Assembly (NCBI GenBank): GCA_036845805.1
Contig: DAIUDD010000002.1
Span: 129,112 to 193,111, forward strand
Direction of reading: 5' to 3'
Length of the DNA: 64,000 bases
Origin: Patescibacteria group bacterium
GTDB taxonomy: Bacteria; Patescibacteriota; Patescibacteriia; UBA2196
Shown: positions 9,877-61,725 of the stretch, piece after piece
Layout: each line of letters opens with the position of its first letter
Position numbering within the stretch: the stretch's first letter is position 1
The notes under the pieces: model-generated
Database searches by the model: none
What the model was told of the DNA's origin: nothing
What the model saw: only the letters and a program-made list of their open reading frames with translations
Program-made: the position numbers and the translations under genes

Positions 9877-9952
9877 TGGTGGGCACGGGTGGATTTGAAC
9901 CACCGACATCCACCTTATAAGGGTGGCGCTCTAACCGCTGAGCTACGTGCCC
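9877..9952 (-). tRNA. tRNA-Ile (TAT), CCA encoded
   Basis: GGGCACG-TA-GCTC..GAGC-G-CCACC-CTTATAA-GGTGG-..-GGTGG-TTCAAAT-CCACC-CGTGCCC-A-CCA. Anticodon read as UAU. Confidence 0.6.
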
Positions 9953-32725: not shown

Positions 32726-33025
32726 TTAATGACTGGCTAATTTAATAATTTCTTCCACATTATCACTAGGTAATGATTTGACAGAAAATTTTTGGCCGCA
32801 TTTTTGGCATTGGTAATGAATAATATATTTTTGATTTTTTAAAGTCACGCCTTGGGGCGCCATTAAGCCGCCGCAGTTGGCTTGACGGTCACCCGGAAAA
32901 ACATCAACATGCTTAGACCATAAACAATTAGGGCAGTGGTCAGTATAACCAGTGCCAATAATTTTGGCGTCGCATAATTCACAAACAAAATTTTCTTTAG
33001 TGCGTTTAAATTTTAGATTAGCCAT
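32726..33025 (-). CDS. RNHCP-domain zinc-ribbon protein
   Basis: 99 aa with 'CELCDAK...TDHCPNCLWSKHVD...CGGLM...HYQCQKCGQKF', matching the RNHCP/zinc-ribbon pattern. Confidence 0.55.
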   Translation of the reverse strand: MANLKFKRTKENFVCELCDAKIIGTGYTDHCPNCLWSKHVDVFPGDRQANCGGLMAPQGVTLKNQKYIIHYQCQKCGQKFSVKSLPSDNVEEIIKLASH

Positions 33026-33123
33026 GTTGATTTTTATTATTATTCAGTTTTTACCAATTGTCAATTGGTTTTGATGGCACAATTTTTAAAAAAGTGTTAA
33101 AATTAAGAGGTTAATAATTACCT

Positions 33124-34074
33124 GTGTATATGAAAAAAAATATTACTTGGCTATTGTTGCTTTTATTTTTAATATTAATTCCATTAAAAAGTCAGGCTGC
33201 CGATATTGCCTTGTCTTGTTATGATACTGGCAATTGTAATTTGTGTAATGCTTTAGAATTGGGGCAAAAAATTATGCGGGCAATTTTAGGCCTAGCCGGT
33301 TCTTTGGCTTTATTATTTTTTGTCTTAGCTGGTTTTAAGATGATCTTAAGCCAAGGTAATGCCAGTAAATTTGGGGAAGCGCAAAAAATGATGACCACGG
33401 CCGTAGTAGGTATTTTTATTGTACTTTTAGCTTGGACAATTGTTAATTTTGTGATCTGGGCTTTGGTTTCTGGGCAAGGAACACCGGGCGCTGGACAAAT
33501 TTTTACTAAGCCTTGGCAAACCATAGAATGCAATGTGCCAGCCGGTGGAGGTGGAAGTGGTGGTGCTGACGGAAGTGGTGGGGGCGGTGGTTCGGGAACA
33601 CCAATTATTTATACTGGCTGCATATCCTCTTGGGAAGTCGGTACACCAAATCCATGCAATTCAACCCCTGGTAATTTCCCTTTCAAAATTACCAATAGTC
33701 AACAAAAACAAGATGCGTCGCCCAGTTTAATAAAATTTTTAAATAATTTGTATTCTAATCTGTTGAGTGGCGGCGTGCTATCTCCAGGAGAAATTACCAT
33801 TACTTCTGTTAGCGATAGCAATGGCATTGGTTATTGTCGCGATTCAAATCCATTTCCACAACCTTGCGAAGAGGATAGAGTGACAACCAATTGTTGTTGG
33901 CATACAAAAGGTTCTTGCCATTATCGAAAAGACGGTTCTCATGCAGTAGACATAAGACTCCTAGGTAGTGATACCAAAAAAACTGCCTTGGAGAACGCAG
34001 TAAATTTTTTAGGAGGTTATTTTAAAACGGAAGGCGATCATTATCATGTGAGTTATCAGTGTAGCGGATATTAA
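33124..34074 (+). CDS. TrbC/VirB2-like pilin-domain membrane protein with Gly-rich linker and C-terminal putative LAS-type (HxxD...HxH) Zn hydrolase domain
   Basis: Signal peptide; N-terminal two-helix pilin-like module 'LGQKIMRAILGLAGSLALLFFVLAGFKMILSQGNASKFGEAQKMMTTAVVGIFIVLLAWTIVNFV', paralogous to the C-terminus of the 53774-54397 protein. 'GGGGSGGADGSGGGGGSG' linker; C-terminal 'GSHAVDIRL...GDHYHVSY'. Confidence 0.55.
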   Translation: MYMKKNITWLLLLLFLILIPLKSQAADIALSCYDTGNCNLCNALELGQKIMRAILGLAGSLALLFFVLAGFKMILSQGNASKFGEAQKMMTTAVVGIFIVLLAWTIVNFVIWALVSGQGTPGAGQIFTKPWQTIECNVPAGGGGSGGADGSGGGGGSGTPIIYTGCISSWEVGTPNPCNSTPGNFPFKITNSQQKQDASPSLIKFLNNLYSNLLSGGVLSPGEITITSVSDSNGIGYCRDSNPFPQPCEEDRVTTNCCWHTKGSCHYRKDGSHAVDIRLLGSDTKKTALENAVNFLGGYFKTEGDHYHVSYQCSGY

Positions 34075-34097
34075 TAAAAAAATAAAAAAATATTTAT

Positions 34098-35132
34098 ATG
34101 ACCCTTAAAGAAATTTTTCAAGAAGCAGTAAAAAATAAAGCTTCCGATGTACATATTATTGTGGGTAAACCGCCAATTTTTCGCATTAATGGCGAATTAA
34201 AAGCGATAAAAAATGCGCCAGATGTTAATGAAAAAAAAGCAGAAGAATTAATTTTTGGATTATTAAATCCCCAGCAAAAGGAAAGGTTTTTAAAAGAAAA
34301 AGAATTAGATATTTCTGCACAACTACCCGATAATAATCGCTTAAGAGTAAATTGCCACTTGGAGAAGGGTAATATTGGCCTGGTGGCGCGCCTTATCCCG
34401 GCTGTACTACCAACCATGGAAGAAATTTTAATGCCGCCAATTGCCTATGATTTAGCCAGGCGCAAACAAGGCTTGGTTTTATTAACTGGGCCAACTGGCT
34501 GCGGCAAATCAACCTCACTCGCGGCCATGATTAACTTAATTAATAATGAACGTTCAGTGCATATTGTCACTTTAGAAGACCCAATTGAATTTATTTTCCA
34601 CCCAGTTAAATCAATTATTAAACAAAGACAAATTGGAACAGACACTGTTTCTTTCGCTGAAGGTTTAAAACATGTTGTACGGCAAGATCCAAATGTGATT
34701 ATGGTCGGTGAAATGCGCGACTTAGAAACTATTAGTACCACTTTGACTTTGGCCGAAACCGGACATTTGGTTTTAGCGACCCTACACACCAACAGTTCTT
34801 CGCAAGCAATTGACCGGATTATTGATGTTTTCCCGCCATACCAACAAGTACAAATTCGGCTACAACTATCTTTAGTCTTAAACGGCATCATTGCCCAACA
34901 ATTATTGCCAAAAACAGATGGCGGGCGTATTGCGGCACGAGAAATATTAATTAATACGGCCGCAGTGGCTAATTTAATCAGAGATCAAAAAACTGCTCAA
35001 ATCAGAAGTATTTTACAAACTTCTTCCAGCCAAGGCATGTTTACTATGGATCAGGATCTAGAAAAATTAATTGATCAAAATCTGGTAACGAAAGAAATGG
35101 CTAGTATGTATATGCTTGACGGAAAAAGCTAA
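34098..35132 (+). CDS. pilT: Type IV pilus retraction ATPase PilT
   Basis: 344 aa; Walker A 'GPTGCGKST'; Asp box, Walker B 'VIMVGEMRD'; His box 'GHLVLATLHTNS'; N-terminus 'ASDVHI' typical of PilT. Confidence 0.85.
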   Translation: MTLKEIFQEAVKNKASDVHIIVGKPPIFRINGELKAIKNAPDVNEKKAEELIFGLLNPQQKERFLKEKELDISAQLPDNNRLRVNCHLEKGNIGLVARLIPAVLPTMEEILMPPIAYDLARRKQGLVLLTGPTGCGKSTSLAAMINLINNERSVHIVTLEDPIEFIFHPVKSIIKQRQIGTDTVSFAEGLKHVVRQDPNVIMVGEMRDLETISTTLTLAETGHLVLATLHTNSSSQAIDRIIDVFPPYQQVQIRLQLSLVLNGIIAQQLLPKTDGGRIAAREILINTAAVANLIRDQKTAQIRSILQTSSSQGMFTMDQDLEKLIDQNLVTKEMASMYMLDGKS

Positions 35133-35200
35133 GCGGTATAAATTTAAACAAGAATAAAACGGGCCCGAGCCTCTTGCCCGGTCCGTTTTTAAAAATTTTA

Positions 35201-35272
35201 GCCCCTGTGGTGAAATGGATATCACGTTTGGCTTCGGACCAAAAATTTTGGGTTCAAATCCTGACAGGGGCA
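35201..35272 (+). tRNA. tRNA-Arg (TCG)
   Basis: GCCCCTG-TG-GTGA..TCAC-G-TTTGG-CTTCGGA-CCAAA-..-TTCAAAT-..-CAGGGGC-A. T-stem weak, so could be marginal. Confidence 0.6.
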
Positions 35273-38252: not shown

Positions 38253-38315
38253 AAAATATTTTTTATTTAACACAATTATATAACCTTTTCTGGTTATGGT
38301 CAAGGAAAATAAAAA

Positions 38316-38338
38316 ACCCCGGCGATCCGGGGTTCAAA
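38316..38338 (-). terminator. Rho-independent terminator (AACCCCGGATCGCCGGGGTT + T-run on minus strand)
   Basis: GC-rich 7-bp stem followed by TTTTTT in minus orientation, immediately after the stop of the Cys-rich ORF. Confidence 0.65.
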
Positions 38339-38344
38339 CTTATA

Positions 38345-38557
38345 TTACTCATTGCCCTGTGCGCACTTGCACACAAGACAAGGAGTGGTGCAGCTGCAAG
38401 CACCAGCTTCGTTGGCTGCTTTTCGGAACACGGGGCAATCTTCTCTATGGGCACAAGATTCTGGACCGCATCCACGGACCCCGGAATCATCTATTCCGCG
38501 ACATGTTGTTTTGCTACACGCCGCCAATCCTGCGGCCACTTGTTTGCAATTAAACAT
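38345..38557 (-). CDS. Cys-rich small protein (70 aa, 11 Cys; metallothionein-like or RiPP-precursor-like; unclassified)
   Basis: MFNCKQVAAGLAACSKTTCRGIDDSGVRGCGPESCAHREDCPVFRKAANEAGACSCTTPCLVCKCAQGNE. SD GGAGGG 8 nt upstream; terminator downstream; local GC about 55% against about 35% background. Confidence 0.4.
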   Translation of the reverse strand: MFNCKQVAAGLAACSKTTCRGIDDSGVRGCGPESCAHREDCPVFRKAANEAGACSCTTPCLVCKCAQGNE

Positions 38558-38575
38558 TAGCCTTAGCCCTCCAAT

Positions 38576-38722
38576 TTATTTTTTAAAAATTTTATCTGGG
38601 ATCAAATATATGACCGCTGATAAAGCTACGGCCACTAAAAAAAATAGTGGAATAAAAAATGGTCGGCAAAATTTATTGTCAGCCAAATTATCAATAAAAA
38701 CTAGAAACTTTTTCATTTTCAT
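38576..38722 (-). CDS. Small hydrophobic membrane peptide (48 aa) co-transcribed upstream of the Cys-rich ORF
   Basis: Hand-translated (not in ORF track): MKMKKFLVFIDNLADNKFCRPFFIPLFFLVAVALSAVIYLIPDKIFKK. Strong SD 'GGGAGGAGAGA' immediately upstream; stop 18 nt before the next ORF's start. Confidence 0.4.
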   Translation of the reverse strand: MKMKKFLVFIDNLADNKFCRPFFIPLFFLVAVALSAVIYLIPDKIFKK

Positions 38723-38789
38723 TCTCTCCTCCCGTTAATGACTTTTAAAAAAATAATTTACTATGTAATTAAAAATTTATTAATCTTTA

Positions 38790-39500
38790 TTACCAATCTT
38801 TAACTCTAAGAGCCTCTTCGGCTGCAGCCATCTGTGCTTCTTGCTTAGAAGTGCCAGTGCCTTGAGCCACCAGCTCATCTTCTAAATAGACCCCGATCAC
38901 AAAATTCTTATTATGATCAGGACCAGATTCAGCTAGAACCTGATAAGAGGGGGTGATTCCGACGCGGTCCTGCGCTTCTTCTTGAAACCGAGATTTGGCA
39001 TCAATATACAATTTTTTATCTAAGATGTTTGGCAGGTGTGTAATAATATTTTTATTAATAAATTCACTGGCCTTAGCTATGCCTTGATCAAGATAAATAG
39101 CGCCAATAATAGCTTCCATGGCGTTAGCCAAAATATAATTGCGAGCCTTCTGGTTTTTATCTTTAGCTTCACCGCGCGATAAATGCAAATATTCCTCCAC
39201 GCCTAATTGATGTGCAATGTCGGCTAACATTTTGGCATTAACCAAAGCGGCTCGCCAGTTAGTCAATTCGCCTTCGGGATTTTTATATTGTTTATAAAGA
39301 TATTCAGTCACTACTAACTCTAAAACAGCGTCGCCCAAAAACTCTAAACGTTCATTGTGGCCCAAAGATAAATCAGGATGTTCATTTAAATAGGAACGAT
39401 GAATTAAGGCCTGGAGCAATAAATTTTCGTCATTAAACCGACAAGTAAGGTGTTTGGCAAACTCACTAATGTTTTTCATAAAAAAAATAGCCCCATTCAA
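38790..39500 (-). CDS. rnc: Ribonuclease III
   Basis: RNase III signature 'ERLEFLGDAVLELVVTEYLY' and C-terminal dsRBD ('GPDHNKNFVIGVYL...AQGTGTSKQEAQMAAAEEAL'). Confidence 0.9.
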   Translation of the reverse strand: MNGAIFFMKNISEFAKHLTCRFNDENLLLQALIHRSYLNEHPDLSLGHNERLEFLGDAVLELVVTEYLYKQYKNPEGELTNWRAALVNAKMLADIAHQLGVEEYLHLSRGEAKDKNQKARNYILANAMEAIIGAIYLDQGIAKASEFINKNIITHLPNILDKKLYIDAKSRFQEEAQDRVGITPSYQVLAESGPDHNKNFVIGVYLEDELVAQGTGTSKQEAQMAAAEEALRVKDW

Positions 39501-43951: not shown

Positions 43952-44683
43952 TTATTTTTTTAATAATTGATCAATAATGGTTTTTAAATTTTCATAAGGC
44001 ACTGCACCGGGCACAGGATTATTGTTAATAAAATTAGTCGGGGTGCCTTGTACGCCAGATTCTACGCCTAAATTATAATCAGCTAAAATTTTCTCTTTAT
44101 ATTTCTCTTCTTCGATACAGGTATTAAATTTATCAGTATCGAGATTTAATTGGCCAGCAAATTTGCTAAAACTCGCTTCAGATAAGGTGTCCTGATTAGC
44201 AAAAATCATATCGCTCATTTCCCAAAACTTATCTTGCTCGCCAGCACATTCAGCTGCCAAAGATCCAGGCATGCCCAAAGGATGAGAAGCAATAGGAAAG
44301 TTTTTAAAAACCCAAACAACTTGATCGCCATATTCCTTAACAATCTTAGCCATGGTTTCTTGGTGTCTGGCACAATAAGGACATTGAAAATCAGAAAATT
44401 CAAAAATTTTAACTGGGGCGTTTTTATTACCACGCACATGATCATTATCAGAAATTTTTAAATCAACCTTAACCGCTGGTTCATTTTCATTGTTTTGTTG
44501 ATTAGCTGCTTGATTGTTATTATTGGCATTATTATTAGCTTGATTATCTTTGTTAGAAAAACCACCAGTAAAATAGGCAGCGGTGGAAATAAGAGCAATG
44601 CCCAAAATCAGTCCTAAGAAAAAATTTACTTTAGGAGAATCAGTAATAAATTTTTGTGAAGTTTGATTGTTTGCTTCAGTCAT
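43952..44683 (-). CDS. DsbA-like thioredoxin-fold thiol:disulfide oxidoreductase, membrane-anchored
   Basis: N-terminal TM, Asn/Gln-rich linker, CxxC 'FQCPYCARHQ', and thioredoxin-fold C-terminus. Confidence 0.75.
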   Translation of the reverse strand: MTEANNQTSQKFITDSPKVNFFLGLILGIALISTAAYFTGGFSNKDNQANNNANNNNQAANQQNNENEPAVKVDLKISDNDHVRGNKNAPVKIFEFSDFQCPYCARHQETMAKIVKEYGDQVVWVFKNFPIASHPLGMPGSLAAECAGEQDKFWEMSDMIFANQDTLSEASFSKFAGQLNLDTDKFNTCIEEEKYKEKILADYNLGVESGVQGTPTNFINNNPVPGAVPYENLKTIIDQLLKK

Positions 44684-44694
44684 ATAATAATTAA

Positions 44695-44940
44695 TTAGTT
44701 AATATTTAATAAATGATTTAATTTATCTTTTTGAAAACCAATAATAATTTCTTCGGTTTTGATAATAATTACCGGCACACCCATTTGCTTGGTTTTATTA
44801 ATCATTTCTTGTTGTGCGGCTTCATTTTCGGAAACATCAATTTCCGTATAAGCAATACCTTTTTCGGTTAGATATTGCTTGGCTAGCTGACAGTAACCAC
44901 AATAAGGTGTCGAGTAGATAGTTACTTGGGGTTGGGACAT
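44695..44940 (-). CDS. Glutaredoxin/NrdH-like redoxin
   Basis: 81 aa 'VTIYSTPYCGYCQLAKQYLTEKGIAYTEIDV...GVPVIII'; CxxC motif and glutaredoxin fold pattern. Confidence 0.75.
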   Translation of the reverse strand: MSQPQVTIYSTPYCGYCQLAKQYLTEKGIAYTEIDVSENEAAQQEMINKTKQMGVPVIIIKTEEIIIGFQKDKLNHLLNIN

Positions 44941-46434: not shown

Positions 46435-47021
46435 ATTTTTGGTGGAGGTGGCCGGAATTGCACCGGCGTCTAAAATTTTTTATTAAACCATTGCTACAAA
46501 GTTAGTTTGTTTAAGTGATCGACCAATTTTCTAAAACAAACAAAACAAATTGGCTTAAGCCTAATTGTTCTTACTAATTTTAAGCGGCCTTAAAATTAGC
46601 CAGCTTGTATTTTATAACACCTTGGCTGCTTTTACAAGCTTTAAGCAGTAAGATGGCGGTTGGATTTAAGCAACCACATAAGCTGGTTGAAAAGAAAAAG
46701 CGTGAGCTAGTTTAGCCACACCTTCTTTCACCCGGCTAAAAAGATTGGCATTTATTGTGCCGTGAATCAGTTTTAAGAGATGATTCAACTCTCTTTGATA
46801 AGTTTAATAGCTAAATTTTATCAAATTTGAACACCCCCATAATATTAAACTCAAAGTTCAAAATGCCAGCTCTGCGCCGGCATCCCGCATTTTGTGGGTT
46901 GGTTGTCCAAAGAACAACCAAAACTCAAAATTTAAGGTAAAAAGTTAGAATTATTGTAGCTTAAAAAATAAAAGATGTCAAATATAATAAAAAACTTTTA
47001 AAATATCTTATTATATTAAAA

Positions 47022-49770: not shown

Positions 49771-51249
49771 TTATAAATCGCCTAATTCATAATTAATTGT
49801 TTGATTTTTATAGCGCGACATCAGCCGACGATCGCTGATTAACAAGCTAATAATTAAGGCGCTGCCGCCAGCCACTAAACCATCAATTAAACTTTCGGAG
49901 ATAAGATTAAAAACCGTCCAAAGTTCACCAATCCAAATAACTTTAAAAAAAGAGCGCGCTAAACCAACGAGTAATCCGGCCAAAATCAAACACTTAACAG
50001 TGGTGGAGCGATTTTCAAAATGAACCAAGCGCAGCCGCAACGACATCCAAACAAAAACTACCACGTCAAGCAACACCAGGTAAGGCAAAAAGACGCCCAA
50101 AAACAAAGTTCGCCAACCGGGAATAAGACTAAAAAAATATAACAAAAATTCCAACCCGGCTAAATAAATGACTGGCCGTCTAATTATGGAAACATACCAG
50201 CCCCGATGATGAAAAGGACGGTGCTTTAGCCAATTTTCTCTGGCTTGTAAATACTTAGCACGCGCATTTTGTTTTTGTGCCTGTTTTAATTTCTGCGCGG
50301 CTTGTTTTTGTACTTTCTTAGCTGCTAACTGTTCTTGCCAATCTTTGATTTTTTGTTCGCGAGCATTTTTTTTACTCTCTTCCAGAGCAATTTTTTGCTG
50401 GCGGCTTTCTTTAGCTGCTTGTTCTTTGTCGGCTTTAATCTGTTGTTTTAATAATTCTTTTTGGGCGCGCAATTCGGCTCTTTTCGTCTGCTCTAAAACT
50501 AAGAGTCTCTCTTGTTCTGCCTGGTGGTCTTTTTCTTTGGCCAAACGTTGTGCTTTTAATAATTGCGCGGCTTTTTCTGCCGCGGCTTTTTTTTGCTCGC
50601 GCTCGATTTGTTGTTGTTTTATTTTTAACAGCTCGGCTTGGCGCGCTTCTTCTTTTGCTTTTTTAGCTTGTTCTTTGGCTAAATGCTTGGCTTCGATTTT
50701 GGCTTGTCTATCTGCCAACCATTTTTCTTCAGCCGCTATTTTTTCTTGACGAATCTTTTCTTTCTCAGCAGCAGCTTTCTGAGCTTTAATAATTTTTTCT
50801 GCTTGTCGACGTTTTTGATCTTGTTGTCTTTTTTCATAACGCAAAGCTCTGGCCTTTCTAATTTCTTCGCGCTGTTCTTGTAAAAAATTTTTTCTCTTGG
50901 CTGTTACCTCTTTAAGATTACCAGGATGGAGTTTAAAGCTTTGATATAATGGCCAAGAAGACTTTTTTTCATTTTCAGCATTATTAGTGACTGGCTCTTT
51001 AAGCGCTGATTCTCTTTTAACTAATGGCAATAATTCTGATTCTTTTTTTAATTCAGCCAGTTCTTTTTCTAATTCTAAAATTTCGGCTTTTTTTTCTAAA
51101 TAAGAGGCGTAAGAGGAAGTTGGTGCTAAATTTTTTTCATCAATTTGTTCCTCTAGTTGTGTAATTAAAGTTGATAAATCATCTGAGGCAATGGAATCAG
51201 TTAATAAACTTTCAATTTTTTTAGATGAAGAAGTAAAATCATCAGCCAT
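49771..51249 (-). CDS. Membrane-anchored protein with ~250-aa K/E/A/Q-rich charged helix (single-alpha-helix/coiled-coil, TolA-like) and C-terminal 4-TM domain
   Basis: Compositional: long 'KAEKAAQ...EQAKKAKEEARQAELLK' low-complexity helix, then hydrophobic C-terminus. Confidence 0.45.
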   Translation of the reverse strand: MADDFTSSSKKIESLLTDSIASDDLSTLITQLEEQIDEKNLAPTSSYASYLEKKAEILELEKELAELKKESELLPLVKRESALKEPVTNNAENEKKSSWPLYQSFKLHPGNLKEVTAKRKNFLQEQREEIRKARALRYEKRQQDQKRRQAEKIIKAQKAAAEKEKIRQEKIAAEEKWLADRQAKIEAKHLAKEQAKKAKEEARQAELLKIKQQQIEREQKKAAAEKAAQLLKAQRLAKEKDHQAEQERLLVLEQTKRAELRAQKELLKQQIKADKEQAAKESRQQKIALEESKKNAREQKIKDWQEQLAAKKVQKQAAQKLKQAQKQNARAKYLQARENWLKHRPFHHRGWYVSIIRRPVIYLAGLEFLLYFFSLIPGWRTLFLGVFLPYLVLLDVVVFVWMSLRLRLVHFENRSTTVKCLILAGLLVGLARSFFKVIWIGELWTVFNLISESLIDGLVAGGSALIISLLISDRRLMSRYKNQTINYELGDL

Positions 51250-51858: not shown

Positions 51859-52434
51859 ATGGCAAAAGATAAGGAAAGAAAAAAGGGTGGTGGTGCCGAA
51901 GATTCAATTGGCATCATCTTAGAGCAAATCGGTCCGCCGATTGCTCAAGTTCTGGTCACTTTTTTCTCAGTTAATTTTTTGGAAAAAAATTTGGACATAA
52001 TCAAAACCAGCCCCTTTTTCAGCTGGATCATTAACATGCTCCTGCCGGATACGGGGATTGGGAAGACACTGGCTGATATACAGCAGGAGATTTTTGCCAA
52101 GCAGCTAGTAATAGCTGTTGAAGCAAAGATAAAAAACCCTAGAAATTTTCAAGACCGAAGCCAGATCTGGCAAAGTCTGCGAGAAAAAATTGCTGGCCTG
52201 AGAGCCAGCAACCCAGAATTGCCTGGCGTTCTGGAAAAAATTCCTGACCGGCTGGAAAAAATTGGCGCAAAAATTCAAGAGTGGCTTGGAAAAAATCAAC
52301 CTCTGGAAAAAATAAACCAGGGGGTTGGTGAATGGGCCATGCGCCAATGGGGCACGAAAGAAAAAGCCCCTGCCAATTTGGCCGAATGGAAGAAAAAAAG
52401 TGAAGAATTTCGCAAAAGATATTGGAGGGATTAA
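51859..52434 (+). CDS. Hypothetical protein (191 aa)
   Basis: Follows the upstream gene by 10 nt with SD 'AAGGAGAAAGAG'; no family recognised. Confidence 0.45.
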   Translation: MAKDKERKKGGGAEDSIGIILEQIGPPIAQVLVTFFSVNFLEKNLDIIKTSPFFSWIINMLLPDTGIGKTLADIQQEIFAKQLVIAVEAKIKNPRNFQDRSQIWQSLREKIAGLRASNPELPGVLEKIPDRLEKIGAKIQEWLGKNQPLEKINQGVGEWAMRQWGTKEKAPANLAEWKKKSEEFRKRYWRD

Positions 52435-53708
52435 AAATGGATAGAATTATTGACATCATTGACGATTTTTTTACCACCGTTCTTAATCTCGTATATGGTG
52501 GTTTCGGCGCGCTTATCAATCAGGGCGTGCCAGAAGCCCGCCGGATATTGAGAGGGTTTGAATGGTTGACGGTAACGCTGATTCTCGCCGGCGTGTATGC
52601 CCTCATAAACCGGGATGTGCCGATTTTATCGGCCGTTCTGTTGGTTGTTTTGTTGATTTATTATGGAGGAATTTTTTTCAGCTCCATAAAAATCAATATC
52701 AGGGACCATGAGATCGGCGGCTGGGATGGCGCGCAAAGGACATTGTCATTACTGTTCATGTTCTTTACGCCGGTCGTTGTTCTGTTTTTGTTTGATATCG
52801 ACTTTGCTACCAGCAAAGTTGGTATTGGCATGATGGCCGGATATTTTATAATAGGCGTCTTTTTTGACGCATTTGGCCGATTCATCGGGCGAGTAACAAA
52901 TGCCCCGGCTTATTGGCTGACAATTTTCATGCTCACCACGCTTGCTTTGGTGGCATGGAAGAGCGCTTTCCCTGAAAACTATCTAGCCCACAAGGTGGAC
53001 TGGGAAAGAAAGGTCGGCGTGTGGACTGCGCACAAAGACCGCAAATCTTTCCCCAGTGGCCTTGACGGGTCTGCCACTTACACAAAAGTAACAGAAGAAA
53101 CTTTTTGTTTTTATAAATGCGGAGGAACCTTCATACCGGCCACCGCCGATACCACCAACAGGGAACATCTCAGAATCGAGCTGGGCACCGAAGTTGCCGT
53201 GGTCAACCACGGTACTGCCCCAGAAATGTGGGGCGACGAACAAATGGTGTTGGTGCGATTAAAAAATTCGACAACCAATTTGTTCACGGGAAAAAAGGTC
53301 TGGGTGCCAAGCCGATTTTTGGATAATTTCCAAAGCCCGCTGGATTATCGGCCAAAACCGGCCCCAACACCAGGTTCTAATACCACCACTACCACCACTA
53401 ATTCCCCGCCGAGAAAAGACACTACTACAATCTCAATTTCCAATCAAGGTGAGTGGGTGGAAATCGGCACACCATTGCACGAGGGCATGCGCGTTTATGT
53501 GCATGCGCCGTATAAAGAAGTGAGGGGGATGTTTAGTTGGATGGAGGAGGAGGATTCAATTCTTCTCCAACCAATCTATAAACACCACGCTGGCGGATGG
53601 TGGGGTTTTTATCGGGTCACGGCTGAGCCGGATGACCCAAGCACCAAATTTTTAATCCAAGTACCTGAAGCCGTGGCGGGAGAAACGGTGCAGTACTGGA
53701 TTGGGTAA
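52422..53708 (+). CDS. Polytopic membrane protein (about 5 TM) with Thr-rich linker and C-terminal extracytoplasmic domain (hypothetical)
   Basis: Start overlaps the preceding stop; 'NTTTTTTNSPPRKDTTT' linker; terminator GGACGGACT..GTCCGCCC+T-run at 53722-53750. Confidence 0.45.
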   Translation: MEGLKMDRIIDIIDDFFTTVLNLVYGGFGALINQGVPEARRILRGFEWLTVTLILAGVYALINRDVPILSAVLLVVLLIYYGGIFFSSIKINIRDHEIGGWDGAQRTLSLLFMFFTPVVVLFLFDIDFATSKVGIGMMAGYFIIGVFFDAFGRFIGRVTNAPAYWLTIFMLTTLALVAWKSAFPENYLAHKVDWERKVGVWTAHKDRKSFPSGLDGSATYTKVTEETFCFYKCGGTFIPATADTTNREHLRIELGTEVAVVNHGTAPEMWGDEQMVLVRLKNSTTNLFTGKKVWVPSRFLDNFQSPLDYRPKPAPTPGSNTTTTTTNSPPRKDTTTISISNQGEWVEIGTPLHEGMRVYVHAPYKEVRGMFSWMEEEDSILLQPIYKHHAGGWWGFYRVTAEPDDPSTKFLIQVPEAVAGETVQYWIG

Positions 53709-53773: not shown

Positions 53774-54397
53774 TTAATTAAAAACATTAAAAACAAAATT
53801 TAACAAGGCATAAGAAGCAAAGACAATTAAAATTCCAATGGAAGCATAAACCAAAGTATCTTGACCGGTTTTTATTTTAGCAGAATTGCCTTGCGAAGTT
53901 AATAAAATAAAGCCGCCATAAACAAAAATTAATAAAGAAATACTGCCAATAATACCAAGAAAAGCTTTAATAATCCGGCCAATTATTTGTTCAATTGAAC
54001 CAGCAGCAATAGGATTGTTTAAGCTTGATTGATTAGTAGTGGGGTTGGCGGGCGCATTCGGATCAACAGGACAACCGGCCATATTTGGATCAACGTCTTT
54101 TTGTCCGGGTAGTGGGTTGGCACAACAGCCGACTAAAGCGGGATTAGCTCCACACTCATCAGAAGAAGGTAGGTTGGTACAAGTAGCAGTACAGCCAGTG
54201 GGATTTGAACCACAACACTGAGTTTGGCATTCTGCCTGATTGGTGGTAATAAAATAATCACTGCCAGAACTTGGCGATACCCGACAATCACACAAACAAC
54301 TTGGATCTGCTGCCAAAGTAAAACTAGTCACAAAAAAAATACTAAATAAACTTAAGATAAAAATAAATAAAAATTTTTTTAACATAAACTTATTCAT
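53774..54397 (-). CDS. Secreted Cys-rich protein (14 Cys in ~95 aa) with C-terminal TrbC/VirB2-like pilin module
   Basis: Signal peptide; 'CLCDCRVSP...CQTQCCGSNPTGCTATC...CGANPALVGCCANP...GCPVDP'; C-terminus 'IIKAFLGIIGSISLLIFVYGGFILLTSQGNSAKIKTGQDTLVYASIGILIVFASYALLNFV' paralogous to the N-terminus of the 33124-34074 protein. Confidence 0.5.
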   Translation of the reverse strand: MNKFMLKKFLFIFILSLFSIFFVTSFTLAADPSCLCDCRVSPSSGSDYFITTNQAECQTQCCGSNPTGCTATCTNLPSSDECGANPALVGCCANPLPGQKDVDPNMAGCPVDPNAPANPTTNQSSLNNPIAAGSIEQIIGRIIKAFLGIIGSISLLIFVYGGFILLTSQGNSAKIKTGQDTLVYASIGILIVFASYALLNFVFNVFN

Positions 54398-60339: not shown

Positions 60340-61725
60340 ATGATTAAAAAGATTAATTTTAATTCAATAGTAGTTATTGTTTTTTGCTTAGCGCTGGCCG
60401 CTGGCCTTTTTTATTTTCATAACCTAAAAAATAATCAAAAGACGTGCCGCGCTTATTTGTCAGATGAGACGCGCTGGTATGCCGAGTTTAGTTTAAAAAA
60501 TACAACTTGGAGCAATTTAAATAAGGAAGAAAAAAATTTTTTTTATCAACAAAAAATAATGCCGGAACTAGAAGAAAAATTTTGGCCGTTAATTGATCTG
60601 GTGGCAACAGTTAATACCCCCGAAGGGGTGGTTTGGTTATTAGAAACTAAAAATAGTAAAAAAATATTAGCGGAATTGCCAAAAAAATTTAAATCGGTCT
60701 TATTAGAATCAGATTTAGTCGGCTTAGCTAACAATGAAAAAAGTCTTGAGCTTATTAAAAAGAGCGGCGCCACACCCCCGGGTGATGTATCAAAATTAAT
60801 TACCAATAATTTTTTGCCCACCGCAACTCTTAATTTCTATTTTTCATCACATCAAGCACCAAAAATAAGTGCTTGGCTACCATTTGAGATTGGTGAACAA
60901 AAAAAATATGTTTTTTTGTCTTTAAATAAAAAAGATGTCTTCTGGCAATATGAGCTAAACACCAAGATTGGCGAAAAAAAGACAACCAACTCAAAATTTA
61001 ATAGTCAATTTAAAAATTGGCAAGATGAAGAAAATAAAATAAGTAAAAACATTTTTTTACAAAACGATGGGGTGTTATTAATCGCCGTAGCAAATTTGGC
61101 TGAATTATGGCCAATAGAAAATGACTTTGGAAATGAGTTTAAAAAAACAATTAATAATAAATATCCTGATATAGATATAAATAATTTTGATAAAAATTTA
61201 ATAAATGGCCCGGCTTTGATGTTGTTAGAAAAAAAACCAACGGCCAACAGTAATAATTGGTTATTGGCGGTGCAAGTAAAGGATGCAAAAGAAAAAATAA
61301 ATATTCTTAAAGAATTACTTAGTAAGATTTTGGCTTATACTTATCCCGAGGAACAGATTAAAAAATTGCCCGATGGATCAACTGCCATAAATTTGGTAGC
61401 TAATAATAAAAAATATTCTTTTCAAGCAAGCACCAACGGATTATATGAAACAACTGAGACGCCAGAAGGTGTTTGGGCGGTAATGCAAAATGGCAATTAT
61501 CTGTTATTAACTAATAAGGCGGCGCTATTAGATAAAATCTTAATTTCAGAAAAAAATAATCAAGTGCTTACAATATTGGAGCAGCCACCGTGTTTTTTTG
61601 CCACTGGTCAAGAATTCATGAAAGTCAACTTAGCAGCCCTGGAGCTAAAATTGCCGAATCAATTTTTAAGCGCTAACTTAGAAAATAATAATGGCCAGCT
61701 TAAGATAAGAGGCTGTTTAAAATAA
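60340..61725 (+). CDS. Hypothetical N-terminally anchored/secreted Lys/Asn-rich protein (461 aa)
   Basis: N-terminal TM 'IVVIVFCLALAAGLFYF'; no family recognised. Confidence 0.45.
   Translation: MIKKINFNSIVVIVFCLALAAGLFYFHNLKNNQKTCRAYLSDETRWYAEFSLKNTTWSNLNKEEKNFFYQQKIMPELEEKFWPLIDLVATVNTPEGVVWLLETKNSKKILAELPKKFKSVLLESDLVGLANNEKSLELIKKSGATPPGDVSKLITNNFLPTATLNFYFSSHQAPKISAWLPFEIGEQKKYVFLSLNKKDVFWQYELNTKIGEKKTTNSKFNSQFKNWQDEENKISKNIFLQNDGVLLIAVANLAELWPIENDFGNEFKKTINNKYPDIDINNFDKNLINGPALMLLEKKPTANSNNWLLAVQVKDAKEKINILKELLSKILAYTYPEEQIKKLPDGSTAINLVANNKKYSFQASTNGLYETTETPEGVWAVMQNGNYLLLTNKAALLDKILISEKNNQVLTILEQPPCFFATGQEFMKVNLAALELKLPNQFLSANLENNNGQLKIRGCLK

Follow-up and report, generated by a model that had tools for sequence, protein, structure and literature searches.

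A VirB2-like pilin module joined to a predicted Hedgehog/DD-peptidase-like domain in a Patescibacteria genome

The present analysis concerns a stretch of 64,000 nucleotides from a Patescibacteria group bacterium (assembly GCA_036845805.1, contig DAIUDD010000002.1, positions 129,112 to 193,111), hereafter called the window and numbered from its first letter. At 33124-34074 of the forward strand lies a gene whose product, entered at NCBI as 'pilin [bacterium]' (HPL95550.1 / HPI67214.1), combines a signal peptide, a pilin module of the type IV secretion system (T4SS), a flexible linker and a Cys-rich C-terminal domain; pilT follows on the same strand. Judged from its sequence, the C-terminal domain belongs to a bacterial branch of the Hedgehog/DD-peptidase superfamily that is so far uncatalogued and has its zinc motif split. 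We hold with moderate confidence that the fusion is a tethered zinc peptidase, the wall-breaching peptidase arm of the Patescibacterial T4SS, with the peptide of peptidoglycan as its substrate. The window itself, with a GC content of 36.5% and small housekeeping genes, is typical of the candidate phyla radiation (CPR)/Patescibacteria.

The fusion gene and its pilin half

The fusion gene, its signals and the gene that follows it are laid out as below.

33074-33103, forward strand: promoter-like site ATGGCA-18-TAAAAT with a TG extension (consensus scan; weak evidence)
33105-33110, forward strand: Shine-Dalgarno-like AAGAGG (read from the sequence; weak evidence)
33124-34074, forward strand: fusion gene, 316 aa from a GTG start; the ATG at 33130 used in public gene calls gives 314 aa
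33124-33198, forward strand: predicted Sec signal peptide, residues 1-25, ending in ...SQA before AD (hydropathy scan and reading)
33217-33468, forward strand: VirB2-like T4SS pilin module with a C32/C38/C41 motif, two transmembrane helices and a turn
33538-33597, forward strand: Gly/Ser-rich flexible linker, residues 139-158, of low predicted local distance difference test score (pLDDT) in the full-length model
33676-34071, forward strand: predicted Cys-rich Hedgehog/DD-peptidase-like (LAS) zinc hydrolase domain, residues 185-316
34098-35132, forward strand: pilT, encoding a PilT/PilU-family hexameric ATPase of 344 aa, 23 nt 3' of the fusion gene
35156-35190, forward strand: terminator-like GC-rich hairpin with a T-run after pilT (RNA fold of -18.2 kcal/mol for 35133-35205)

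The hydropathy scan of the fusion protein yields three segments (residues 5-30, 49-78 and 88-118), and the two transmembrane helices, at about residues 49-72 and 88-115, lie around an SQGNASK turn (residues 76-82, nucleotides 33349-33369). Pfam assigns residues 48-110 to PF18895 (T4SS_pilin) with 38.1 bits and E 1.6e-9, above the curated gathering cut-off of 26.6. This is the family called 'VirB2-like pilin' of Patescibacteria (PMC12102498). The signal peptide and the two-helix VirB2-like module with its turn, both part of an original prediction made from the DNA letters, are upheld by this match and by the hydropathy scan. That the module would be a generic transmembrane hairpin is not borne out, PF18895 exceeding its gathering score both here and in the second pilin-module protein of the window, described in the last section; an iterative local search found only these two PF18895 modules in the 64 kb. 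The profile support expected from TrbC/VirB2 proper came from PF18895 but not from PF04956 (gathering threshold 27.9 bits), which does not match the fusion protein and stays below threshold in the paralogue. Kinship of both modules to PF04956 would therefore hold at the superfamily level only. By its profile, the module belongs with the T4SS (VirB2) pilins rather than with the type IV pilins, which PilT would retract.

The linker, the motif SHAVD (residues 272-276) and the motif DHYH (residues 305-308), all named in the original prediction, are present in the protein. Between linker and C-terminal domain stands a short Cys-containing segment (residues 159-184, with C166 and C178); besides C32, C38 and C41, the C-terminal region of the protein holds nine further Cys. 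When the full-length protein was compared with the PDB by phmmer, the only matches were to single-chain variable fragments; these were discarded as spurious because they are due to the GGGGS linker.

The conserved C..C motif, the two helices and the S-x-G-N turn are shared with other PF18895 pilins. Described members are for the most part small pilins (~100-190 aa) that stand alone and are encoded in arrays (PMC12102498), whereas the window fusion carries an uncatalogued zinc peptidase-like domain as cargo. Fusions of pilin and lysozyme (SLT_3) exist, and the PF18895 module is therefore already known as a carrier of wall hydrolases.

The C-terminal domain and its relation to Hedgehog and M15 peptidases

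No Pfam or NCBIfam model matches the C-terminal domain, and a word-index homologue search returned nothing, missing even the query protein itself. An exhaustive search with HMMER through 1.84 billion (1.84e9) cluster representatives, at E<=1e-3, found 43 clusters that match the domain, the window protein being one of them. The usual position of the domain is the C-terminus of proteins of 280-330 aa. PF18895 is present in 29 of the 43 clusters, SLT also in two and a phage lysozyme in one. Among the longer architectures, P0025 joins a Cys-rich head, a pilin, a lysozyme and the Hedgehog-like domain, and P0040 a pilin, an SLT domain and the Hedgehog-like domain. The family is rare and patchy and the fusion evolves fast: the window protein and its orthologue at a 'Ca. 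Kuenenbacteria' locus (L005) are only 36% identical, while the PilT proteins beside them are 70% identical.

In an alignment of 38 family domains (A2), Q, S, H, S, H, S, D, H and H are invariant, and D, S, D, G, three Cys, Y, A and E nearly so. The window protein has the invariant residues H260 (in CCWH), H266 (in SCHY, S264-C265-H266-Y267), D276, H306 and H308, and also E303, which at least 90% of members share. The family consensus reads SCHYGG...SYAxD...EGxHxH, and the complete motif H-x3-S-x-H...A-x-D...E-x2-H-x-H is found in 59 of 73 unique members. By contrast H273, the His of SHAVD, is not conserved: among the 59 full-motif members, 37 have Tyr and 10 His at this place. Both His of H306-Y-H308 are invariant in the 38 domains (38/38) and lie on the predicted strand 122-126 of the structural model.

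Run against all PDB sequences, the A2 profile retrieved the N-terminal domains of Hedgehog proteins (Sonic, Desert and Indian) and nothing else, at E 1.6e-3 to 1.1e-2. The alignment with Sonic hedgehog (Shh) sets 'H-x3-S-x-H-Y-G-G...A-x-D-I...E...H-x-H-x-S' against 'H-SEE-S-L-H-Y-E-G-R-A-V-D-I...E-SKA-H-I-H-C-S' and places the family's H/H/D/E/H/H on H135/H141/D148/E177/H181/H183, all six family residues being invariant or near-invariant. An hhalign comparison with a sequence of the Shh N-domain gave 90.1% probability and E 1.6e-6; HMMER and hhalign both match E303 to Shh E177, the equivalent of VanX E181. In Shh the zinc ligands are H141, D148 and H183 and the catalytic base is E177 (PMC6027127). 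We infer from this alignment that H266 (33919-33921), D276 (33949-33951) and H308 (34045-34047) are the probable zinc ligands of the window protein, and H260 (33901-33903), E303 (34030-34032) and H306 (34039-34041) its probable catalytic residues. The sequence can further be matched to the M15 motif SxHxxGxAxD, if an insertion is allowed to interrupt it, with ExxH farther on (motifs in PMC3315420).

The same residues bear on a different reading, in which the domain would be a non-catalytic surface ligand or adhesin on a pilin stalk, binding a host glycan or peptidoglycan in the way that Hedgehog serves as a ligand in animals. Among solved structures the nearest are indeed signalling proteins, for which peptidase activity is disputed (PMC6027127), and rapid divergence with lineage-specific heads, as in the paralogue, is typical of adhesins. 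Yet the equivalents of E303, H260 and H306, which would serve catalysis and not only metal binding, are invariant or nearly so, whereas Drosophila Hh lost these residues (PMC6027127), and some members fuse the domain to SLT or lysozyme catalytic domains. We regard a purely binding role as quite unlikely.

An AlphaFold (AF2) model built with the family alignment reached a pLDDT of 91.8 and a predicted template modelling score (pTM) of 0.85; a single-sequence model was poor for this domain (pLDDT 51) and was left unused. The model runs helix, strand, long coil with CCxH/SCH, strand (AxD), helix, strand, strand (HxH), with the conserved Asp and the H-x-H on strands and the His of SCH in the preceding loop. 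Its best Foldseek match in BFVD is a phage 'Sonic hedgehog' protein (TM-score 0.60, root-mean-square deviation 2.5 Å over 131 columns, probability 1.0), followed by phage proteins named 'Peptidase' and 'Peptidase M15B'. The predicted fold is thus compatible with a metal-binding hydrolase, as had been proposed.

The likeness to Hedgehog N-domains extends to the order of the motifs, H-x5-H...D...E...H-x-H, and no other PDB entries came up in the profile search. By eye, and unscored, the N-terminal helix and strand also seem alike: Q(C)xDASxxLxxLL...ITSISD in the family against QRCKDKLNALA...LRVTEGWD in Shh. With the bacterial bacHh proteins (Hh-DD-peptidase family, MEROPS M15A, LAS; PMC6027127) the family shares a C-terminal position of the domain in larger proteins. 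VanY, LdcB and the phage endolysins of M15B-C (Ply500, LysB4, T5 Lys) are comparable by the motifs SxHxxG...AxD and ExxH and by the phage 'Peptidase M15B' fold matches; in the window family, however, the zinc motif is interrupted by 3-8 inserted residues, and no significant M15 match exists in PDB or Pfam. Unlike Hedgehog, the family has 6-9 Cys, additional inserted sequence that separates the strand from CCxH, and a T4SS pilin module, and its Glu lies two, not three, residues before H-x-H.

A number of results weigh against a zinc peptidase. None of the Pfam models M15, HH_signal and M23 matches any of the 38 members, even at E<=10. At that threshold four members give weak zf-CCCH matches, and the Cys/His cluster C257 C258 x H260 ... 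C265 H266 could instead be a structural metal site. At 21.8 bits the PDB profile match is modest, and it extends over no more than the C-terminal half, about 60 residues; the geometry of the zinc site is inferred from alignment only; and a Foldseek search of the PDB gave nothing significant, VanX ranking 48th at a TM-score of 0.39. The His-Asp spacing is nine in the window protein and 11-14 elsewhere, never the six of the canonical H-x6-D of Hedgehog, and the domain is therefore best placed in the LAS / Hh-DD-peptidase superfamily as a branch that is new, divergent and outside any named family.

The LAS/M15 or Hedgehog/DD-peptidase resemblance, suggested from SHAVD and DHYH, accordingly stands as far as profile, alignment and fold matches go, but the zinc His is predicted to be H266 of SCHY rather than H273, with x9 spacing to the Asp; and of the profiles that were to support it, Pfam M15 found no match while the family's own profile matches Hedgehog N-domains. 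Two sets of matches were rejected along the way: scattered noise from Pfam on the 38 domains at E<=10 (for example zf-CCCH, BRCT, and DUF930 at 13 bits), and 40-residue HAD-phosphatase fragments in the top rows of the Foldseek-PDB search, which are local helix-strand matches.

Gene neighbourhoods and proposed function

The gene 23 nt downstream of the fusion is a genuine pilT: its product scores 427.9 bits on TIGR01420 over residues 3-336 (curated cut-off 319.1). A terminator scan found no terminator between the two genes. Nor did this simple scan flag the terminator-like hairpin at 35156-35190, 3' of which lie genes for tRNA-Arg and tRNA-Lys.

Loci with relatives of the fusion, given L numbers here, were taken from GTDB genomes and JGI metagenomes, both searched with a 10-sequence sub-alignment, and from exact-protein look-ups. 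The fusion gene stands directly before pilT in three diverged lineages, namely the window, 'Ca. Kuenenbacteria' CG10 (L005 = L018 = L019) and L015. The flanking genes are different in all three, so that the conserved unit is the fusion-pilT pair and not the neighbourhood. A functional link to PilT for the whole family was nevertheless rejected, pilT occurring in only three of about 15 distinct contexts. The pairing pointed out in the original prediction is thus real but clade-specific, most other members lying in VirB4 clusters.

Such a pair might suggest that the fusion is an accessory of a type IV pilus, opening the wall locally for a PilT-driven pilus machine rather than for a T4SS. Its retention in three diverged lineages despite rearranged flanks, and the operon-like arrangement of the two genes, speak for this. 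The pilin module, however, is of VirB2 type and unlike a type IV prepilin; across the whole family the association is with VirB4 and not with type IV pilus genes; and besides pilT no type IV pilus gene was found near the fusion gene in the window, where PilB, PilC and VirB4 were all searched for without result and the pilT product is the only T2SSE-type ATPase (n=1). This makes the pilus-accessory role highly improbable.

Two observations touch the flanks of the pair. In the window, an RNHCP-domain zinc-ribbon protein (PF12647, 83.7 bits) is encoded at 32726-33025 on the reverse strand, divergent from the fusion gene; L015 has an RNHCP protein and valyl-tRNA synthetase within ~8 kb of its fusion-pilT pair, in an arrangement that differs from the window. 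The 5' side of the pair in L015 (1-6000) holds helicase, primase-like and regulator-like open reading frames (ORFs) absent from the window and L005, a block with the look of a mobile or defence element that has inserted there.

In Moranbacteria-type lineages (L007 = L021 = L022, L008, L010 and L011) the relatives of the fusion lie inside T4SS clusters. The order of genes there is PrgI/VirB3-like (PF12666), a 228-aa protein, VirB4 (matching P-loop_TraG, AAA_10, CagE_TrbE_VirB and TraC_F_IV), a 154-aa protein, an Rce1-like protein, a protein of ~1000 aa, the pilin-Hedgehog (pilin-Hh) fusion and a 385-aa protein, which puts the fusion 3-4 genes from VirB4. Five further loci (L009, L020, L023, L024 and L025) have their downstream genes in common with these clusters. 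At L008 (6375-7262), L009 (3496-4347) and L025 (1594-2532), a pilin (PF18895)-SLT_3 (PF18896) lysozyme-like fusion adjoins the pilin-Hh fusion, which suggests a two-enzyme, pilin-anchored, wall-cutting pair.

Four of the records bear the titles 'uncultured Bdellovibrionales' or 'Oscillospiraceae' (L008, CAZVVG010000005; L010, CAYTIK010000003; L011, CAZIFD010000002; L006, CAZWCK010000141), and the T4SS cluster they contain is collinear with the one in the Moranbacteria metagenome-assembled genome L007. It looks as though either the submitter taxonomy is doubtful or the cluster was transferred.

The context in the window counts against a T4SS role. The fusion lies among housekeeping genes in 64 kb that contain neither VirB4 nor any other T4SS gene, and the contexts of L001/L002 and L003 are purely housekeeping as well. 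All this would suit a housekeeping wall peptidase that trims the cell's own stems in growth or division, in the manner of VanY/LdcB/MepK-type M15 enzymes, the hairpin being a mere anchor with no part in T4SS or pilus. M15-type enzymes are commonly housekeeping carboxypeptidases, which counts in its favour too. Such an enzyme would hardly account for the use of the PF18895 module, not a generic anchor, in 29 of 43 clusters, or for the location of at least four diverged lineages inside VirB4/PrgI clusters, with five more sharing the same downstream genes. The rarity and patchiness of the family (43 clusters in 1.84e9 proteins) are also unlike a core wall enzyme, and so is its fast evolution, with 36% identity between orthologues against 70% for the adjoining PilT. 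We consider the housekeeping role rather unlikely.

Across Patescibacteria PF18895 pilins are common, their genes frequently standing in arrays beside virB4, and most Patescibacteria genomes with VirB2 have no recognisable VirB1 homologue (PMC12102498). The Patescibacterial T4SS is essential for epibiotic growth and has VirB2-like pilins, unusual among monoderms; in 'Ca. Southlakia epibionticum', T4SS and pilin array are both essential for epibiotic growth (PMC10633639, PMC12857230). A protein of 'Ca. Southlakia epibionticum' ML1, SEML1_0007 (1113 aa), adjoins VirB4 and is essential in transposon sequencing (Tn-seq), and the supplementary structure-based annotation of the Southlakia T4SS paper lists its residues 951-1105 as ECOD 'Hedgehog/DD-peptidase' with template 6n7g (Shh). 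Its neighbour SEML1_0006 has lysozyme-like and cysteine-proteinase domains. The link between the Hedgehog fold and the Patescibacterial T4SS is therefore already on record, whereas for a Hedgehog-like domain fused to a pilin module no description was found in the literature: the pilin fusion and the domain family are new, the link between fold and T4SS is known. Compared by annotation, SEML1_0007 resembles the fusion in its association with a Patescibacterial T4SS, its C-terminal Hedgehog/DD-peptidase domain and its lysozyme-type neighbour; it differs in a long N-terminal region without reported PF18895, the pilins being separate small genes (SEML1_0014-0019).

The VirB1-type hydrolases of Gram-positive T4SSs (PrgK of pCF10, TraG of pIP501, TcpG and CwlT) are membrane-anchored and combine a muramidase with a peptidase (PMC12102498). 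The window family comes close to this arrangement where it occurs with SLT or lysozyme in cis, or with a pilin-SLT_3 protein in tandem. In the Gram-positive enzymes, by contrast, the peptidase is of CHAP/NlpC-P60 or LytM (M23) type and not Hh/M15, and the anchor is an ordinary transmembrane helix. The window protein has neither an SLT nor a CHAP domain, and location in a T4SS cluster holds for its relatives at L007/L021, L008, L010 and L011, the window copy being paired with pilT instead. By analogy, the fusion may act like a VirB1-type enzyme; by homology it is not a member of that group.

On the basis of the domain composition, conservation pattern, family architectures and gene neighbourhoods observed here, the tethered peptidase proposed above would work as follows. 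Sec export would deliver a three-part protein made of a pilin hairpin, a Gly/Ser tether of ~20 residues and a disulfide-rich zinc metallopeptidase of LAS / Hedgehog-DD-peptidase (MEROPS M15-like) fold. By analogy with VirB2/TrbC, both ends of the hairpin would be outside the membrane and the SQGNASK turn in the cytoplasm, exposing the C-terminal domain on the outside. There, according to the alignment with Shh, zinc would be bound by H266, D276 and H308 and water activated by E303 together with H260 and H306. The tethered domain would hydrolyse a peptide bond in peptidoglycan, as its homology, the muramidases in cis or in tandem and the T4SS context suggest, and would work alongside pilin-anchored or separate lysozyme/SLT enzymes. 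Its target might be either the wall of the cell itself, opened in a VirB1-like manner so that a T4SS or pilus can assemble, or the wall of the host, and the protein might either reside in the membrane or be built into a VirB2-type filament.

The substrate could conceivably be protein, the enzyme processing pilins or T4SS substrates or degrading host surface proteins. The Shh N-domain shows self-directed proteolysis (PMC6027127), and sequence alone cannot reveal a substrate; muramidase-type domains in the same polypeptide or in tandem genes argue the other way, as does the fact that characterised bacterial LAS/M15 enzymes cut peptidoglycan peptides (PMC6027127; PMC3315420). A protein-directed protease thus appears very unlikely.

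A bolder version of the T4SS role would make the fusion a true subunit of a VirB2-type filament in a monoderm Patescibacterium, a peptidase-decorated T4SS pilus that opens the wall of the host bacterium, its dynamics powered in this clade by the PilT-family ATPase co-transcribed with it. Zinc peptidases would then be displayed along the length or at the tip of the pilus, supplemented by lysozymes from sister genes. PilT relatives of the DotB/TraJ type serve type IVB systems. We see this drill-like filament as decidedly improbable.

With the tethered wall peptidase as the preferred reading, the fusion bears on how Patescibacterial T4SSs cross two cell walls: a pilin carrying a predicted wall-cutting zinc peptidase would be a concrete, testable candidate for the missing function. 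It often lies beside a pilin-lysozyme fusion and is at present obscured by the annotation 'pilin'. The case is of moderate interest because it provides a concrete candidate for how the T4SSs of pilus-bearing monoderms handle cell walls. It also presents the PF18895 module as a carrier for varied extracellular cargo, with enzymes fused C-terminally and Cys-rich heads N-terminally.

The pilin paralogue and other features of the window

The second pilin-module protein and the genes that might assist disulfide formation are listed below.

53774-54397, reverse strand: second pilin-module protein, 207 aa (NCBI 'pilin', HPL95571.1), downstream of lgt and beginning with a signal peptide
54068-54310, reverse strand: 12-Cys head of this protein
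53792-54001, reverse strand: its C-terminal PF18895 module
43952-44683, reverse strand: transmembrane-anchored DsbA-like oxidoreductase (PF13462/PF01323)
44695-44940, reverse strand: CxxC glutaredoxin-like ORF, recognised by reading only

In the paralogue, PF18895 covers residues 133-202 with 28.4 bits (cut-off 26.6) and PF04956 scores 19.3 bits (cut-off 27.9). The C-terminal pilin module and the Cys-dense secreted head foreseen in the original prediction are both there, but the head counts 12 Cys and not 14. It is found in close relatives only; homology to the Cys-rich heads of P0010, P0025 and L009 was considered and rejected, no match being obtained. The DsbA-like and glutaredoxin-like proteins, which according to the original prediction could service such surface proteins, are candidate helpers for disulfide-rich exported domains: both genes are present, but the link to the pilin proteins is circumstantial and the genes lie ~10 kb away.

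Four sizeable ORFs have no Pfam match: 49771-51249 (reverse strand), and 51859-52434, 52422-53708 and 60340-61725 (all forward strand). Several of them have N-terminal transmembrane segments and two converge on the Cys-rich pilin paralogue; T4SS roles for the four were rejected, Pfam support being absent.

The intergenic region between uvrA and rnc (38304-38790, ~490 nt) has 48% GC in its first 300 nt against 36% in the window. Rfam gave no match there and the sole ORF (38352-38738, 128 aa) is implausible; the region may be an unannotated structured RNA. A full-length transfer-messenger RNA gene (46440-46838, reverse strand; Rfam, 105 bits) lies between infC and the gene for a PEP-utilising enzyme, where ARAGORN, run on the whole window, reported none. 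Finally, a tRNA-Ile gene with anticodon UAU is present at 9877-9952 on the reverse strand. Such a tRNA is uncommon in bacteria, AUA being usually read by a lysidine-modified CAU tRNA, and the source lineage may therefore use a tilS-independent decoding strategy.

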